Made by a program: the position numbers and the translations under genes
Notes under the pieces: generated by a model
Seen by the model: the letters and a program-made list of their open reading frames with translations, nothing else
What the model was told of the DNA's origin: nothing
The model's database searches: none
Source of the DNA: a virus
DNA length: 64,000 nucleotides
Virus record (IMG/VR): IMGVR_UViG_3300033405_000009
Direction: 5' to 3' (one strand)
In this document: positions 2,768 through 26,620 of the stretch, piece by piece
Layout of the letters: every line of letters begins with the position of its first letter
Position numbering within the stretch: the first letter of the stretch is position 1

Positions 2768-3193
2768 TTACATGCTCATAACTTCAGCCACAATAGCCAT
2801 ATTTTCAAGCCACATTCGATTTGCTCCAGGAATCTCAGCAAAACGTCTCATCTGCCCCGCCGATCCGTGTTGGAGCACAATGCTTTGGAATCTCTTTACG
2901 TTGGCACCTTGAATGTCCCGAGCGAATGAGATGGCACACTCTGCATTGTCTGAATGAAGCGCTATCAGCTGCAAGCGCTTAATATCTACACCTTTGCGTC
3001 CACCCCATTGTTTGGCGAACACATAGGCGACCCATTCATTCCGGTAACCGTAACCGTAACCTTGAACGGGTGGTTGACCGGGACGATTGTATCCGGGAGG
3101 AACCCAGTGCTGGTAGGCCGAAGCATCACCGGCCAAAATCGCATTATATTGGGATTGCAATCGCCGCGTCAACGCTGCTTTTTGACGACGCAT
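2768..3193 (-). CDS. hypothetical protein (C-term AEVMSM)
   Basis: ORF 141 aa. Confidence 0.5.
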   Translation of the reverse strand: MRRQKAALTRRLQSQYNAILAGDASAYQHWVPPGYNRPGQPPVQGYGYGYRNEWVAYVFAKQWGGRKGVDIKRLQLIALHSDNAECAISFARDIQGANVKRFQSIVLQHGSAGQMRRFAEIPGANRMWLENMAIVAEVMSM

Positions 3194-6068: not shown

Positions 6069-6482
6069 TTACGGTCTTGTACGTCCAAGGATCTCGAGAG
6101 CTTCATTTACGTCAATGTCTCGAAGTCCATACTTTGAAGACACTCTGACTTGATAAGCTTCGAAGCCTGTAAGCTTGATGTCATCCAGGACGACATACCT
6201 TTCAAAAGGCCCTTTCGCCGCAATGGTCTCGAGAATACGCTTTACGCGGTTATCGTCGTAAATCGCGTAGCCCCCGAATCGGCCTTTGAACCCAGCTCTA
6301 TGAAGGCATTCTGCTGTTGTCTCCTCAGACAGTTCTAACATCCAGAGAGAATGAATATAGAAAGCCACATCAGGAGCAGCCAGCCGATTAGCGATGGTGA
6401 CTAAATCTGGATCCAAATGTCCGGGTCTAAAGTCCCCACCACGGTTCAAAACTCCGTCAAGATCTAGGAAAATAGCTTTCAT
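6069..6482 (-). CDS. HAD-superfamily hydrolase/phosphatase-like
   Basis: N-terminal FLDLDGVL (HAD motif I DxDGx) and VVLDD motif. Confidence 0.55.
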   Translation of the reverse strand: MKAIFLDLDGVLNRGGDFRPGHLDPDLVTIANRLAAPDVAFYIHSLWMLELSEETTAECLHRAGFKGRFGGYAIYDDNRVKRILETIAAKGPFERYVVLDDIKLTGFEAYQVRVSSKYGLRDIDVNEALEILGRTRP

Positions 6483-10082: not shown

Positions 10083-10358
10083 TTAGGTCGTCATGATTTC
10101 GCTCACCACAAATTCTTCTTCTCCAACCGAGAAGTCGAAATAGCGATTTGCTTGCTTGATCAACTCGAGCAGTTCTTCTGGCGGAACGTGTTTATCACAC
10201 GCAGCTGAACGGAACTCAATGATGTTCTCTGAACGACCGGCGAGGTAGAAGAGAACGGCTTTGTCGCTACACTCTTCACATTTGACCATTGGTACCCCGG
10301 AGGAGACTCGAACTCCCAAAAGCACGGCTTCTAAGGCCGCTTGCTGTGCCATTCGCAA
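10083..10358 (-). CDS. hypothetical protein (C-term SEIMTT)
   Basis: ORF 91 aa. Confidence 0.45.
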   Translation of the reverse strand: MRMAQQAALEAVLLGVRVSSGVPMVKCEECSDKAVLFYLAGRSENIIEFRSAACDKHVPPEELLELIKQANRYFDFSVGEEEFVVSEIMTT

Positions 10359-10392
10359 CTAGCTCACCGGGGCATAGTACAGGACGTGGGGA
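10309..10392 (-). tRNA. tRNA-Leu(UAG), type II
   Basis: CCA encoded, acceptor accccgg/ccggggc, loop rc CTTAGAA. Confidence 0.55.
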
Positions 10393-12555: not shown

Positions 12556-12626
12556 TGCCTCTAGGAGGAGTCGAACCTCCCACGTCCGGCTTCGAAGGCC
12601 AGCGTCTGCATTCCGTCAGTAGAGGC
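12556..12626 (-). tRNA. tRNA-Arg(UCG)
   Basis: acceptor gcctcta/tagaggc, T-arm ggagg-agtcgaa-cctcc, loop rc CTTCGAA. Confidence 0.6.
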
Positions 12627-13927: not shown

Positions 13928-14002
13928 TGGTGTCTCCGGGCAGAGTCGAACTGCCAATACGGAGGTTCGCGACCTCCAATCTATTGTTCCGATAGCAGAG
14001 AC
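13928..14002 (-). tRNA. tRNA-Arg(GCG)-like
   Basis: CCA encoded, T-arm ggcag-agtcgaa-ctgcc, anticodon stem ggagg/cctcc. Confidence 0.45.
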
Positions 14003-14451: not shown

Positions 14452-15048
14452 TTACACTCTGAGAGCTGCTTCTACCGAAGAGAGATAAACTTGATGGTAA
14501 CGATGGTCTCCATATGGAAGACCAGCCCCTCCAACTAGCTGTCCATTTTGAGCCTTGAGACTCCAATCTTTCCCGTTCCGAATGGTGTGAAGAGCGGCCA
14601 TCGAGTCCATGTGATGGACCCAACGCAAAACAGCGTAGCCAAACGCTGGACTTCTCGAACCACCCATTTGACAATGGACGTAAATCGGACCGAGGCCGAT
14701 CATCATCTTCGCAAAACTAACTGCATGCCTTACGGTATCCACATTGAATGGAGTTCCGTCATCCGGCACGCGACACTCAGAAAGATTGGGAATGCCTTTC
14801 CCCTCGTCTGAATGTTCAGTTTCTACGTTCAGAACCGAACGAATCCCGAAATCTTTCGCCAAATGCTCCCAATCCGTTTGATCGCAAATTGAGCCCCCGA
14901 TCATGAGATCTGGTGTCACCCACCACCTTTGAACCGGGTGGTTCGGATCGGGAGCGTAAACGCGATTGGTGTAAACTTCGGCCATTCCCATGTGGGACTT
15001 TACTGGAGCAGGAAGGCGCGGATCGAACGCGCGTTTCTCTGGGGGCAC
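14452..15048 (-). CDS. dual-specificity / protein-tyrosine phosphatase-like
   Basis: active-site signature VHCQMGGSRS (HC-X5-R); true start probably at internal Met ~14985. Confidence 0.55.
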   Translation of the reverse strand: MPPEKRAFDPRLPAPVKSHMGMAEVYTNRVYAPDPNHPVQRWWVTPDLMIGGSICDQTDWEHLAKDFGIRSVLNVETEHSDEGKGIPNLSECRVPDDGTPFNVDTVRHAVSFAKMMIGLGPIYVHCQMGGSRSPAFGYAVLRWVHHMDSMAALHTIRNGKDWSLKAQNGQLVGGAGLPYGDHRYHQVYLSSVEAALRV

Positions 15049-16155: not shown

Positions 16156-16596
16156 TCAAACTTGAACGGTCGCAATCAGCCTGCGTTTGGCAGTCACACG
16201 TCTATGACAGTTAGCACAACGGATTTCGCATTTGGCGATTTCTTTCTCGATTTTCCAAATCCTAAAACCACAACCAACCATTCTTGATATGTCACAAATC
16301 TTATCACCTTTTACGTGATCAAAGTCTAAAACTACGGGGTCATTCTCACCGCAATCCACACATGCTCGTTCAGATAAAACTTTTTGAACGTAATCCTTAG
16401 CTTGTTGGATCGCCCTATTGCGGATGGGCTTCATTCGATCGTAAACTGAAATTGGATTATTTTGATTTCGCAACCGAATTCGCTCTCTTACGCATGATTT
16501 GCAATCAGGTCTTAGTTTCCCATCCATTTTTGCAGGATGCAAGAAACTAAATTCCGCTTCAGCTAATACTTTTTGGCATTTTGTACATTTCTTCAT
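16156..16596 (-). CDS. HNH homing endonuclease
   Basis: CVDCGEND...DHVKGDK...CANCH. Confidence 0.65.
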   Translation of the reverse strand: MKKCTKCQKVLAEAEFSFLHPAKMDGKLRPDCKSCVRERIRLRNQNNPISVYDRMKPIRNRAIQQAKDYVQKVLSERACVDCGENDPVVLDFDHVKGDKICDISRMVGCGFRIWKIEKEIAKCEIRCANCHRRVTAKRRLIATVQV

Positions 16597-16800: not shown

Positions 16801-16820
16801 GGCAAGTTGTACTATGTTGA

Positions 16821-17069
16821 ATGAGCCATGTCTGCACTCTCTACGAGTATGAAGGCCGTTTTCACGTTAGTGGAGTCTGTCTTTGTGGCCTCGGTGCAAC
16901 CATGTCTTGGGCGACCAAGGGTACCGATGGCAGCTTCGAGCCCCGATGCGGAAAATGTCGACGGGCAGATGCTCGATACGATCGATCTAATAACAGCAAT
17001 CCCGCATATCACGAGATTGACCGTGAGATCTTCGAGTATCTTTGCGTGCAAGAAGTGATGGAATCTTGA
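16821..17069 (+). CDS. hypothetical zinc-ribbon-like protein (C-term QEVMES)
   Basis: ORF 82 aa, CLCG...CGKC. Confidence 0.45.
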   Translation: MSHVCTLYEYEGRFHVSGVCLCGLGATMSWATKGTDGSFEPRCGKCRRADARYDRSNNSNPAYHEIDREIFEYLCVQEVMES

Positions 17070-17335
17070 GTGCCACAGGCGGGAGTCGAACCCGCCACTC
17101 CAGGGTAAAGAACTCTCGCAAACGCGCTTCCCTACTCCGGCAGTTTACGGCCAGGTCTGCGTTTGTTACCAAACGCAGCGGAGTCCGGTGCTTCCGCAAC
17201 TCAAGAGTCCACCCAATCTCGTGCAGTGTTCAGCTGAACCTCGCCCAGAAGATCTTGCACGAGACCAGTCCAAGAAGCCTCTTCTCGAGGTCATCATTTC
17301 CGTTTAACGATGGCCGTCCCGGCGGCCCGCTGTGG
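17070..17335 (-). ncRNA. ~266-nt element closed by tRNA-like acceptor stem and canonical T-arm (intron-containing tRNA or other tRNA-like ncRNA)
   Basis: T-arm gcggg-agtcgaa-cccgc at 17078-17094; acceptor gccacag pairs with ctgtggc at 17329-17335; internal GGCC/GGCC D-like stem and 9-bp hairpin 17156-17177. Confidence 0.35.
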
Positions 17336-17459
17336 CATTCGTGGAGTTTACGGAACTCGAATCCGTATCTGCGCCTTTTCTGACGCTGCTCTACCTTCAC
17401 ATTTGAACCCGGGCCCAGACTCAAACGTGCGACTTTCGCCTTGAGCTAAAACCCCGCAG

Positions 17460-17619: not shown

Positions 17620-17692
17620 TGGAGTTGACCGGGAACGATCCGGCAACCTCGAGCTTGCAAAGCTCGCGCTCTCCCGATTGAGCTACAACCCC
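17620..17692 (-). tRNA. tRNA-Ala(UGC), non-canonical T-loop
   Basis: RNA reads GGGGTTG-TAGCTCAATCGGGAGAGC-CGAGC TTTGCAA GCTCG; T-loop ATCGTTC. Confidence 0.55.
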
Positions 17693-18114
17693 GTTTTGGT
17701 CATTTGTCGATGGTACGTTCTATCTGCATGACAATTAGCGCAAACTACCTCACATTTTTGGATTTCTGCCAAAACCACTTCTTCAGAATGTTTCCATATT
17801 TCATTAATGGTGCCCATTTTGACTGTTCCAGGCAAGTGGTCAAATTGCATACGCCAGTACGGGTGAATTAGTCTACAGTCGGCACAAGGTTTATTCTTGG
17901 CTTCTCGGACCATTTCTTTTAATTTTTGTTCTCGGGTTTTAGAGTGTTCTCTACTCTGAGAAATATGTTTTCTACGATTAGAAGGATTAGAATACCATTC
18001 TGACCAATATATCTTTTGGCAATCACGACAGACGCTGCTATATCCTGCTTTCTTTTTATTGAAAGAATCCGTAGATTTTGTCTCTCCGCATTTAGAACAA
18101 AATTTCTTCTCCAT
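17683..18114 (-). CDS. HNH homing endonuclease
   Basis: CADCRLIHPYWRMQFDH...CANCH; paralog of 13299-13727. Confidence 0.65.
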   Translation of the reverse strand: MEKKFCSKCGETKSTDSFNKKKAGYSSVCRDCQKIYWSEWYSNPSNRRKHISQSREHSKTREQKLKEMVREAKNKPCADCRLIHPYWRMQFDHLPGTVKMGTINEIWKHSEEVVLAEIQKCEVVCANCHADRTYHRQMTKTGL

Positions 18115-18211
18115 GTCTAGATTTGCAATGGATTTATTATTGCAAATCTAGACACAAGCCTTGCAAAGGCCTGATCCTGCCATTAGACTTATGGCCCCAA
18201 TGTGAACTTTG

Positions 18212-18282
18212 CTGGGGTGTAGGGACTCGAACCCCAATAGGCGGCTCCAGAGACCGCCGTCCTGCCATTAGACGACACCCCA
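18212..18282 (-). tRNA. tRNA-Gln(CUG)
   Basis: acceptor tggggtg/cacccca, anticodon stem gcggt/gccgc loop rc CTCTGGA. Confidence 0.55.
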
Positions 18283-18374
18283 AAGCGAGTGTAGCCCCGT
18301 CGCTTGAGCTACATTCAGCCCAGCTGCTCGAAGTAATCCTCAGGAGCGACCCCGAGGTTCCTCGTCAGCTGTAG

Positions 18375-18448
18375 TGGACCCAGACGGTGACGATCCGTCT
18401 ACCTCCGCGCTGCCAGCGCGGCGCTCTCCCAACGTGAGCTATGGGCCC
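18375..18448 (-). tRNA. tRNA-Ala(GGC), non-canonical T-loop
   Basis: RNA reads GGGCCCA-TA-GCTCACGTTGGGAGAGC-G-CCGCG CTGGCAG CGCGG; T-arm GACGG ATCGTCA CCGTC. Confidence 0.55.
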
Positions 18449-18449
18449 T

Positions 18450-18598
18450 TGGCACTGCGCTAGGAATCGAACCTAGTATCTAAGCGTCCACGATCTTCTT
18501 CTCAGCACCACCCATTCGTACGGCGCCGTACGAGATGAGCAGAAAACTCCGAGCCTCCAATCGCGACCTTCAAAGGAGTGGCACCAGCCACCGCATTG
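18450..18598 (-). ncRNA. structured region ending in tRNA-like T-arm/acceptor/CCA without a clean 5' acceptor partner
   Basis: 3' end ctagg-aatcgaa-cctag + cactgcg + TGG; 16-nt perfect palindrome CGTACGGCGCCGTACG at 18517-18532. Confidence 0.3.
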
Positions 18599-18669
18599 TG
18601 GACCGCCGGGGAATCGAACCCCGATCCCTCCCGTGCGAGGGGAGTGTACGCCCGTTGTACTAGCAGCCC
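18599..18669 (-). tRNA. tRNA-Ala(CGC)
   Basis: acceptor GGGCTGC/GCGGTCC with G-U pairs, D-stem GTAC/GTAC, anticodon stem CTCCC/GGGAG loop CTCGCAC, T-arm CGGGG TTCGATT CCCCG. Confidence 0.55.
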
Positions 18670-19185
18670 GTTTCGAATAAGTGGAGTAGATGTGTAAGCC
18701 GGGTTCTGTCGAGGACGATCATTCATCTAGGCTCGGCATTGCTGACGAGCTCAAGCAGCACACCCGAGAGCATCGGTCGGGCAAACCGCTCTCTGTTGGC
18801 CTTGCTCCAGGTGAGGTTTAGCGCAGTTTACATCACTGCAAACTGGGCAGGGTCTTACTCCTGCCTTTGCACCCTTACCACGGTCGAAACCGTGGCGGTT
18901 TTCTTTCTGTTCCACTTTCTGTCGGATCACTCCGCCTGGTCGTTAACCAGCACCCTGCCCTGTGGAGCCCGGACTTTCCTCTCGCCTTTCGGCCAGCGAT
19001 CGTCTCATCTACTCCGAAGATTGGTGGTACTCACTTGATTCTGCAGAATCTTTACACCCTCAAGAGGCCGTTACGGGAATCCTCCTTTTGGTGAAGGGCG
19101 ACAAGTGATCATGATCGAACGGATCTCTCCGCCCGCGCCATTTCCTTGCTGAGTACCGTCCCTAAGCAGTTTCGAACCTGCTCGG

Positions 19186-19253
19186 CACGCCCGGAAGGAA
19201 TCGAACCCTCATCCGGAGTTTTGGAGGCTCCGTTGGCACCTTGCCTCGGACGT
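19186..19253 (-). tRNA. tRNA-Trp(CCA)-like
   Basis: T-arm gaagg-aatcgaa-ccctc, loop rc CTCCAAA. Confidence 0.4.
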
Positions 19254-19319
19254 ATGGTGAGATGGGAATGATGAACGAGGGACCTAGAAATCAGGTCGTC
19301 ATTCCCATTCACATCTCAG

Positions 19320-19391
19320 CGCCCACGAAGGGAGTCGAACCCTCCTCACTGGCGTGACAAGCCAGCCGCCTCACCGGATGCGTACGCGGGC
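19320..19391 (-). tRNA. tRNA-Asp(GUC) copy 1
   Basis: anticodon stem ctggc/gccag loop rc TTGTCAC; paralog of 21175-21246. Confidence 0.55.
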
Positions 19392-19873
19392 AGTTTTCTA
19401 GTGCCGTAAGTCGATGTTTGTGAATGACAGTTTGGACAAAGAAATCGGAGATTGTCTTTGTCATTATTGGACCAATCTCCGTCTCTATGATCGATTGGGA
19501 GTGTTAATGGTTTGCCATTCCATTTCGGGCCTTGACCACAAGCTTCGCACTTATGCTCTACTCCGCTTTCTAAGAGAGCTCTTCTCAATTGAACGGTGGG
19601 TAGTCTTCTCTTACTAGTCGGAGTGAAGATTTGTGACGGAGCTTTTCTTTTAGTTGAAAATTTTCCTGTGAACCCTCTCCTGAAATGAGAGGTGTTCAAT
19701 TCATACTCTTCAATCCTTCGCCGGATGAGGCTACTGGTGCTTCCGGAATATGATTTGAATCCGAGTCGAGTTAGGACTTCTGCAAGAGAGAAACTTTCTC
19801 TTACAACTCTTTGTAGTACCTCTCGCGTGTATTTCACACGGTCATCATACAAGCGTCGTGAGCCAGCCGTCAA
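19346..19873 (-). CDS. HNH homing endonuclease
   Basis: CEACGQGPKWNGKPLTLPIDHRDGD...NLRFLCPNCH. Confidence 0.6.
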   Translation of the reverse strand: MTAGSRRLYDDRVKYTREVLQRVVRESFSLAEVLTRLGFKSYSGSTSSLIRRRIEEYELNTSHFRRGFTGKFSTKRKAPSQIFTPTSKRRLPTVQLRRALLESGVEHKCEACGQGPKWNGKPLTLPIDHRDGDWSNNDKDNLRFLCPNCHSQTSTYGTRKLPAYASGEAAGLSRQ

Positions 19874-25992: not shown

Positions 25993-26080
25993 AGTGTGGG
26001 CGATAGGATTCGAACCTACTCAGGCTTATTGGCGTTGCGGGCGGGTTACAGCCGCTTGAGCTCTCCAGGGCTCAGCACCC
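25993..26080 (-). tRNA. tRNA-Tyr(GUA), type II
   Basis: T-loop attcgaa, D-arm gagc-cctggaga-gctc, loop rc CTGTAAC. Confidence 0.5.
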
Positions 26081-26137
26081 ACGCGATTTTGTTGCGCGCG
26101 TGCGCCGCCGTATACTGTTCTCGTCGCGTTGCCATCT

Positions 26138-26620
<483 letters not shown>

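Follow-up and report, generated by a model that had tools for sequence, protein, structure and literature searches.

Element B is a 266-nt element on the minus strand (positions 17336 to 17071) of a 64,000-nt stretch of viral DNA, IMG/VR record IMGVR_UViG_3300033405_000009, which resembles part of a huge phage and is referred to here, at its full length, as the window. The two ends of element B belong to one tRNA-derived gene and are not a random pairing. With moderate confidence, the element is read as a stable tRNA-scaffolded RNA that would keep its large insert and be matured like a tRNA: a complete cloverleaf is combined with a large self-folding insert in the variable region, and the whole lies in a tRNA array, in gene register. 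It is one of a broader set of re-engineered tRNA-like genes, apparently not described before, that this clade of huge phages carries. The parts of element B, all on the minus strand, are the following.

17336-17071, minus: element B, whole, 266 nt (sequence; called as c[17070,17336] by ARAGORN in its intron-allowing mode with default thresholds)
17330-17336, minus: acceptor 5′ strand GCCACAG (7/7 Watson-Crick pairs with 17072-17078)
17312-17327, minus: D arm GGCC-GCCGGGAC-GGCC (sequence; ARAGORN cloverleaf)
17292-17312, minus: anticodon-type arm (CA)UCGUU-AAACGGA-AAUGA(UG) (minimum-free-energy and constrained folds; ARAGORN tRNA-Arg(acg) on insert-deleted constructs)
17101-17291, minus: insert of about 190 nt in the variable region (self-folding into several helices)
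17270-17288, minus: insert hairpin 1, UCGAGAAG-AGG-CUUCUUGG, 8 bp, with ACC before it (mean pair probability 0.84)
17213-17268, minus: insert hairpin 2, with stems of 13 bp and 6 bp separated by an internal loop (pair probability 0.94-0.98)
17157-17178, minus: GUAA (GNRA) hairpin of 9 bp, CUGCGUUUG-GUAA-CAAACGCAG (pair probability 0.99)
17097-17144, minus: insert 3′ hairpin (folds; an alternative pairing is given in the text)
17079-17095, minus: T arm GCGGG-UUCGACU-CCCGC (exact match to the tmRNA/tRNA T-arm consensus, 16.6 bits)
17072-17078, minus: acceptor 3′ strand CUGUGGC (sequence)

Element B shares with canonical tRNAs a 7-bp acceptor stem followed by A73, a T arm, and a D arm with G18 and G19. 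It starts 5 nt past the discriminator (17342) of the preceding tRNA-like gene, and its acceptor 5′ strand is followed by C8 and G9 (17329-17328), which give a 2-nt spacing to the D arm. The D stem comprises 4 bp (GGCC at 17327-17324 and 17315-17312) and closes an 8-nt loop containing G18, G19, and A20. At the correct spacing, exactly one base past the D stem, stands the anticodon-type hairpin, whose 5-bp stem is extendable to 7 bp and whose 7-nt loop, AAACGGA, carries ACG at the anticodon position together with A32, A33, G37, and A38. The T arm has a 5-bp stem and a 7-nt loop that fits UUCRANY, and the element ends in a discriminator A at 17071 without an encoded CCA. The original prediction, made from the sequence alone, had located the element at 17070-17335 and the complement of its acceptor strand (ctgtggc) at 17329-17335; both the minus-strand element and the 7/7 complement are present, but each lies one base away from the position given, the complement being at 17330-17336 on the plus strand. 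The canonical T arm (17095-17079, followed by the acceptor strand at 17078-17072), the D-like GGCC/GGCC stem, and the 9-bp interior hairpin (17178-17157) that it described were all recovered.

The 7-nt complement alone is not significant: some orphan T arm would be expected to find a perfect partner within 420 nt about 0.4 times per window, and in related loci about 8% of the orphan T arms have a spurious partner at that range if one G-U pair is tolerated. The first of these figures speaks for a coincidence, in which an orphan tRNA 3′ fragment would face an unrelated complementary sequence upstream; alternatively, the element would be part of a plus-strand open reading frame (ORF) at 17042-17383, whose 113 aa span it. 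Together, these two explanations are considered very improbable. Next to the upstream strand come D and anticodon arms, spaced as in a tRNA, and both acceptor strands are fixed in position by the neighbouring arms, so that the calculated probability of 7/7 Watson-Crick pairs is 4^-7 = 6e-5. When the insert was deleted in silico, with 2,852 boundary combinations tried, ARAGORN scored the constructs at 108-114 (maximum 114.2) and called tRNA-Arg(ACG); the genuine tRNAs of the array range from 101.5 to 122.6, with a median of 113.5. Replacement of the 38 nt after the acceptor strand reached the score of 114.2 with only 5/8000 random genomic and 5/8000 shuffled 38-mers. The default call of element B by ARAGORN with introns allowed compares with zero intron calls in 640 kb of Markov-random sequence. 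In a homology-free scan of 1.57 Mb of phage loci, element B was among only three candidates scoring at least 105, the others all lying at one locus (L074), and the reversed decoy sequences gave no candidates. Because D and anticodon arms follow the 5′ strand, and in view of these controls, the two ends are assigned to one tRNA-derived gene; a coincidental distal complement with no internal structure, named in the original prediction as one of two outcomes that would overturn it, does not fit these results. As for the ORF at 17042-17383, it was not called by the gene callers on any of the four source contigs, is rich in Arg and Ser, and matches no family. A protein-coding function on either strand was likewise rejected, since no ORF in or across element B has family support or was called on those contigs.

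With regard to the insert, the approximately 190 nt sit after the complete anticodon arm, i.e., in the variable region and not in the anticodon loop. An alternative ARAGORN model, a tRNA-Leu(AAG) with a 176-nt intron in the anticodon loop, has a weak anticodon stem (three Watson-Crick pairs) and an unpaired 24-nt variable arm, and ignores the perfect 7-bp hairpin CAUCGUU-AAACGGA-AAUGAUG. A complete anticodon-type arm followed by a variable-region insert therefore appears to be the better reading of the predicted structure. The insert folds with z = -3.07 on the sense strand (1/200 shuffles as good) and z = -1.95 on the antisense strand, and the 267-nt spacer past element B (16804-17070) has no excess RNA structure (z -0.5). 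Two global arrangements compete in folding. In the isolated insert, the 17097-17144 segment pairs with 17259-17245 instead of forming the 3′ hairpin and thereby closes a large domain, and a constrained fold contains a P2-like long-range helix around several hairpins. The ACCUCG at the start of hairpin 1 weakly resembles, by eye, the A(A/C)CUCGG of the long-tRNA family described below. Rfam, the phage database, the related loci, and the window outside element B gave no match to the insert.

Rfam searches over the region of element B at E<=10 gave hits only to the neighbouring tRNA-like gene and, as a fragment of the tmRNA model, to the T arm of element B, and detected no group I or group II intron, self-cleaving ribozyme, YrlA RNA, or riboswitch. 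The tmRNA, group I intron, and tRNA model searches suggested in the original prediction thus yielded nothing from element B beyond this 16.6-bit T-arm fragment. Its exact T-arm consensus match, together with the P2-like helix of the constrained fold, recalls a divergent tmRNA, either in one piece or made jointly with the neighbouring tRNA-like gene that has a G3:U70 pair. It could also be argued that no tmRNA was recognised in the window by the Rfam scan, and that a related array on a 286-kb IMG/VR contig (L001) of a huge phage contains a bona fide tmRNA (2064-2413, 76.9 bits). The tmRNA identity is nevertheless regarded as extremely improbable: the 3:70 pair of element B is C-G and not G-U, hence no alanine identity is present; the tmRNA mode of ARAGORN reported 'Tag not identified' even at a lowered threshold, in agreement with the earlier statement that no convincing tag frame was seen; the match to RF00023 covers the T arm only, at 16.6 bits against a gathering score of 47; and no SmpB was found within the 64-kb window. 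In the two-piece version, the acceptor strands of the neighbour are complementary to each other and unpaired with element B.

The neighbour itself, an adjoining upstream tRNA-like gene at 17455-17342 on the minus strand, scores 36.3 bits with the Rfam tRNA model. It has an alanine-type acceptor with G3:U70, a 6-nt 'anticodon' loop, and a 48-nt structured insert in the D loop; its counterpart in the related contig L087 (11977-12049) has no D-loop insert and a 4-6-nt loop. This gene may be an anticodon-less alanine acceptor. A likeness of its D-loop insert to group II domain V was considered and dropped, having no Rfam support.

A structured variable-region domain is not confined to element B. 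The window encodes four paralogous long tRNAs, in each of which a full cloverleaf carries a conserved domain of about 60 nt between the anticodon arm and the T arm, and the covariance model of this family (R1) detects such genes in four contigs of related huge phages, with three to four copies per contig. The long tRNAs are as follows.

23926-23795, 24165-24031, 24449-24316, and 24905-24769, minus: four long tRNAs of the window, 131-137 nt (unconstrained folds)
L087, 5723-5854, 6037-6159, and 6413-6546: long tRNAs
L088, 6662-6799, 6953-7086, and 7222-7366: long tRNAs
L089, 5731-5867, 6021-6156, and 6294-6434: long tRNAs
L094, 5293-5428, 5911-6027, 6172-6310, and 6320-6462: long tRNAs

The family ranges from 117 to 145 nt in length, scores 41-147 bits with R1, and is missed by standard ARAGORN and Rfam. 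The domain is made up of two hairpins, a short one of the GNRA type and a long one that carries the motif ACUCGG, together with CACAAGCA, which is single-stranded. Across 17 sequences, compensatory changes occur in 35/39 pairs, and 95.8% of cells are paired. The anticodons differ between copies (CAU, GAU, GUU, GUC, UCC, CAC, GUA, and ACG), and several long tRNAs have A33 or G33.

The same domain recurs in a second set of genes. For many of the 'orphan' T arms, the exactly matching acceptor 5′ strand lies 8 or 21-25 nt downstream; these arms belong to circularly permuted tRNA-like genes, two in the window and seven in the relatives.

23632-23485 and 23163-23021, minus: circularly permuted tRNA-like genes of the window
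L087, 5858-5997: circularly permuted gene
L088, 1340-1511 and 7481-7649: circularly permuted genes
L089, 670-829 and 6548-6715: circularly permuted genes
L094, 5744-5903 and 6570-6742: circularly permuted genes

In these genes, each of which begins directly after a normal tRNA, the T arm stands first with the acceptor 3′ strand (+NCC), and a linker (8 or 21-25 nt, often a UUCG hairpin) leads from there to the acceptor 5′ strand, the D arm, and the anticodon arm. The RNA ends pair into the long helix of the variable-region domain, and 25/32 pairs show compensatory changes among nine sequences. As this domain closes the permuted genes, it must be part of the mature fold in that family and not an intron; after RNase P cleavage, the permuted genes would yield two-piece tRNAs. 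The permuted elements G and H have weak YrlA matches (24 and 16.8 bits, where the gathering score is 69), and matches of the permuted elements to permuted tmRNA are weak and sub-threshold. No report of long-variable or permuted tRNAs in phages was found in the literature.

Element B also shares its loop type with these genes. U33 is recurrently replaced by A or G across several phages, and two loop patterns are seen, C-[U/A/G]-NNN-A-A (CAGUAAA at 24165-24031, CAUCCAA at 23632-23485, and CAGAAAA at 23163-23021) and A-R-NNN-G-A. The latter comprises AAACGGA of element B and AAAGGGA (24905-24769), AAUUGGA, and AGUAGGA of the family, and an ACG loop with A33 is also present in the long tRNA of L094 at 6172-6310. 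It may be speculated that the replacement of U33 bears on resistance to anticodon nucleases. Membership of element B in the R1 family was tested and rejected, as only the T arm matches; judged by its sequence, element B is a different, larger variant and not a long-tRNA family member. The long and permuted tRNAs with a structural variable-region domain are the precedent for retention of the insert in element B.

Two side observations concern these RNAs. A Ro60-like role was considered for a 626-aa VWA protein encoded beside the long tRNAs of the relatives and was dropped, as the sequence of this protein has no hit in the PDB and the window encodes no homologue of it. Locus L074, on an unrelated RtcB-encoding viral contig, has tRNA-like genes with large internal expansions on its plus strand (2786-2940, 2955-3023, and 3030-3154); in one gene, 66 nt replace the anticodon-arm region, and another has a truncated anticodon arm. 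Expanded tRNA-like genes may therefore be more widespread in phages.

The structural role of the domain in its relatives bears directly on whether the insert of element B is removed. In the original prediction, the candidates were a tRNA with a ~190-nt intron and a tRNA-like non-coding RNA (ncRNA), and RtcB was named as the natural sealing enzyme should an intron be excised. Excision of some 175-190 nt and sealing of the halves, e.g., by the phage RtcB, would leave a tRNA-Arg(ACG)-like product of about 76-90 nt, or a tRNA-Leu(AAG) under the anticodon-loop model of ARAGORN. ARAGORN indeed calls an intron-containing tRNA at default thresholds, the 5′ exon of its anticodon-loop model ends in U and the insert in G, like group I splice sites, the insert is lineage-specific, and RtcB is encoded within the window. 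Nevertheless, this course is thought improbable. Models of group I introns, group II introns, and small ribozymes gave no match at E<=10; an insert of 176-190 nt is at or below the size of the smallest group I introns, and the conserved core sequences are absent by inspection; and the anticodon-loop model has a poor stem at the expense of the perfect 7-bp hairpin. We know of no bacterial protein endonuclease for such insert sites, which was also counted against excision. Group I membership in particular was rejected, as RF00028 gave no match at E<=10 with permissive filters and the insert is not in the anticodon loop. RtcB (37725-36487, minus) is encoded as had been stated, but 19 kb away from element B, and a role in splicing is conceivable, although nothing specific supports it; jumbo-phage RtcB has been explained as a tRNA-repair enzyme (PMC7824862). 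An intron in the usual sense is thus not borne out, the insert following an intact anticodon-type arm in the variable region and no intron model matching, and the tRNA-like ncRNA is the better of the two candidates: a tRNA-derived RNA of 266 nt with a real acceptor stem.

Searches for homologues recovered element B in four metagenome contigs, where it is 100% identical, and every contig with a gene for the flanking HNH protein agrees with the window at 100% identity. Comparison of element B with GenBank phages by blastn at distant settings gave nothing, nothing matched when 20 kb of the window was compared with phages by megablast, and tblastx of element B with the spacer found none either. 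The T-arm/acceptor word of its 3′ end was absent from a single-word IMG/VR scan as an exact 26-mer, and a 25-mer scan of JGI metagenomes gave no homologue among the matches listed, which were two unrelated tRNA-Asn loci. The interior of element B is not repeated elsewhere in the window, and the relatives identified through EF-Tu (L087-L096) and through the DSP-type phosphatase (L099-L103) have rearranged arrays without element B. The spacer at 16804-17070 is lineage-specific as well; its sole called gene is an 82-aa plus-strand ORF ending at 17069, for which no homologue beyond itself was found.

Several observations weigh against a functional, insert-retaining RNA. C8 and G14 replace U8 and A14, and the loop has A32 and A33, so that U33 is absent while a purine is present at position 37 (G). 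The Rfam tRNA model RF00005 (gathering threshold 29 bits) gives no match to element B even at E<=10, and the 266 nt of the element compare with a tRNA length criterion of about 70-95 nt. R1 matches only the T arm, at 9.7 bits with filters off. The insert is known from a single sequence: all four metagenome copies agree, and the searches yielded no diverged homologue in which covariation or conservation could be examined. At the corresponding position, the closest syntenic relative, L087, has only a degenerate 72-nt tRNA-like element without detectable sequence homology to element B (similarity rank 266/389); orthology between the two was rejected, the similarity being no better than that to random tRNAs. 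Finally, the array is rich in tRNA fragments and homing-endonuclease ORFs, a setting where disrupted pseudogenes would be expected.

The alternative that draws most on these points is a disrupted pseudogene: a normal tRNA gene would have gained about 190 nt of unrelated DNA in its variable loop, e.g., through an array rearrangement driven by homing endonucleases, and would now be non-functional, the intact helices indicating only that the event was recent. The array contains about 18 orphan T arms and several HNH/endonuclease VII (EndoVII) ORFs, on both sides of element B; both the element and the 267-nt spacer lack homologues; positions 8, 14, 32, and 33 bear non-canonical bases; and, with GCCGGAG as a weaker internal alternative to the acceptor 5′ strand, the final 72 nt of the element can be read, below threshold, as tRNA-like. 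A pseudogene is held to be unlikely, though a serious contender, since the four cloverleaf helices, including the 7/7 acceptor stem, are all intact, and the T loop is canonical. Moreover, the fold of the insert is unusually good, the more so on the sense strand, which is unexpected for random inserted DNA, and the odd loop pattern is common to family members supported by covariation and is so not simply decay.

Under the favoured reading of element B as a tRNA-scaffolded RNA, the element would be co-transcribed with the array, as suggested by the lack of promoter and terminator signals specific to it. Its 5′ end would be cut by RNase P, presumably with the RNA subunit encoded by the phage itself, and its 3′ end would be trimmed after A73 before CCA is added. 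The insert would be retained in the mature 266-nt RNA and would project from the variable pocket in the manner of class II variable arms, the tRNA body serving as a scaffold for the processing and stability of the extra domain. The identity elements for arginine are established for E. coli ArgRS, and C35 and G36 of the ACG loop, together with A20 and A73, fit them. Efficient decoding is doubtful because of A33, C8, and G14, and a non-decoding role, such as that of a decoy or a protein-binding platform in a tRNA conflict between phage and host, appears as likely as a role in translation.

In a wider and more tentative proposal, element B, the long tRNAs, and the permuted genes would together constitute a phage-specific class of re-engineered tRNAs, expanded or in two pieces. 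Such RNAs might be matured by the phage RNase P RNA and act as nuclease-resistant decoders or decoys in the tRNA conflict, with the phage EF-Tu, RtcB, and other RNA-repair genes as partners; element B would then be the extreme case, with a functional RNA domain of about 190 nt of a new kind.

The minus-strand tRNA array extends from about 5.9 to 26 kb of the window (about 20 kb). ARAGORN makes 44 calls there, and the array also has many tRNA fragments and about 18 T arms that lack a partner close by. Within it, 1.3 kb upstream of element B, lies an RNase P RNA.

18679-19015, minus: RNase P RNA, bacterial class A, full length (Rfam RF00010, 287.6 bits)

An RNase P RNA in a phage tRNA array is unreported in the huge-phage surveys examined. 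In megaphages, tRNAs and a tmRNA were the only such RNAs detected (PMC8172020), and Al-Shayeb et al. described EF-Tu, tRNAs, and tmRNAs in huge phages, the text of that article making no mention of RNase P, tRNA introns, or RtcB (PMC7162821). The window also encodes EF-Tu with an N-terminal extension (21204-19927, minus), a major-vault-protein (MVP)-like ORF with the MVP shoulder plus a vault repeat (30674-33232, plus), a DSP-type phosphatase ORF (14452-15048, minus), an ATP-dependent DNA ligase, and, elsewhere in the window, a HAD_SAK_2 'RNA repair' domain. EF-Tu, RtcB, the MVP-like protein, the phosphatase, and the HAD_SAK_2 domain make up a set of translation and RNA-repair genes that surrounds the array. 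It was reported by Iyer et al. that jumbo-phage tRNAs and RtcB/Rnl ligases serve as a defence against tRNA-cleaving host effectors, and jumbo-phage RtcB is usually read as a repair ligase for cleaved tRNAs (PMC7824862).

Some other features of the array were also recorded. Homing-endonuclease-like ORFs of the HNH or EndoVII type stand among the tRNA genes (16156-16596, 17683-18114, 19346-19873, and 26138-26560, all minus) and flank element B on both sides, and the gene order of the array differs strongly between related phages. A permuted 'tmRNA*' called by ARAGORN at 18057-18690 (minus) is probably a false positive. It overlaps three ordinary tRNA genes, has no Rfam support, and shares about 12 nt at its 3′ edge with the 3′ end of the RNase P RNA. 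Directly downstream of EF-Tu lies an unannotated but conserved element that resembles tRNA-Trp and has the loop CUCCAAA (19183-19256, minus, in the window; L087 11307-11378; L088 11405-11478); it is 82-91% identical between phages and is called by neither ARAGORN nor Rfam. Five more T-arm/acceptor pairs lie outside the default ARAGORN list (13932-14002, 12557-12626, 10294-10373, 25996-26082, and 231-370, all minus): three are of normal length, one of 87 nt is probably class II, and the fifth, a 140-nt element at the start of the window, matches R1 weakly (18.8 bits). At least nine tRNA-like genes in the window are overlooked by standard finders, namely elements B and A, the four long tRNAs, the two permuted genes, and the Trp-like element, which shows that a substantial fraction of the tRNA-like genes in huge-phage arrays escapes standard tRNA finders.

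Among known RNAs, element B resembles the class II tRNAs (Leu, Ser, Tyr, and Sec) in its complete cloverleaf, the helical material between the anticodon and T arms, the canonical T loop, G18 and G19, and the location of the gene in a tRNA array. However, class II variable arms consist of about 10-25 nt and one hairpin, whereas element B has about 190 nt with at least five helices there, lacks U33, U8, and A14, and leaves RF00005 silent. The long and permuted tRNA-like genes of the phage clade share with it the array, the strand, a structured variable-region domain, and loops without U33, but their domain is of about 60 nt and carries the ACUCGG and CACAAGCA motifs, both of which are missing from element B.

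YrlA RNAs (RF02553) of bacteria and phages are tRNA-mimicking non-coding RNAs like Y RNAs (Chen et al. 2014; PMC4201824). They share with element B the T and D arms, an acceptor-like stem, occurrence in phages, and a link to RtcB-type RNA repair, and some YrlA RNAs are cleaved by RNase P and receive CCA. Their order is stem, (V), T, acceptor loop, D, and stem, and they end in a Ro60-binding helix, whereas element B has the normal tRNA order and ends in an acceptor stem. A YrlA identity of element B was rejected on that order, on the lack of a match to RF02553, and on the absence of a TROVE domain among the 69 ORFs of the window; YrlA RNAs are the nearest described RNAs, and the permuted elements match them only below threshold. 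Like element B, tmRNAs have 260-400 nt, a tRNA-like acceptor stem and T arm, and a structured interior, and they occur in huge-phage arrays (PMC7162821); unlike them, element B has true D and anticodon-type arms, and no PK1-type organisation was detected in it. Bacterial tRNA genes interrupted by group I introns, such as the cyanobacterial tRNA-Leu(UAA) and the Azoarcus tRNA-Ile, are likewise of 200-300 nt with an internal structured RNA. Their introns lie in the anticodon loop and have a group I core, whereas the insert of element B lies past the anticodon-type arm and matches no model.

In tRNA-scaffolded RNAs, such as engineered scaffolds and the tRNA-miRNA chimeras of MHV68, the tRNA body provides RNase P/Z processing and stability; they carry their cargo in place of the anticodon arm or downstream, whereas that of element B would be in the variable region. 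The tRNA is among the most constrained of RNA folds, and natural variable arms are not known to exceed about 25 nt; for bacterial-type tRNA genes, no interruption is known other than a group I intron placed in the anticodon loop. If the favoured reading is true, a 190-nt structured domain in the variable region would widen what a tRNA body can carry, as would the 60-nt domain, the circular permutation, and the non-U33 loops of the neighbouring genes, and these features would point to an unexplored layer of the phage-host contest over tRNA, in which anticodon nucleases, RtcB repair, and decoys take part.

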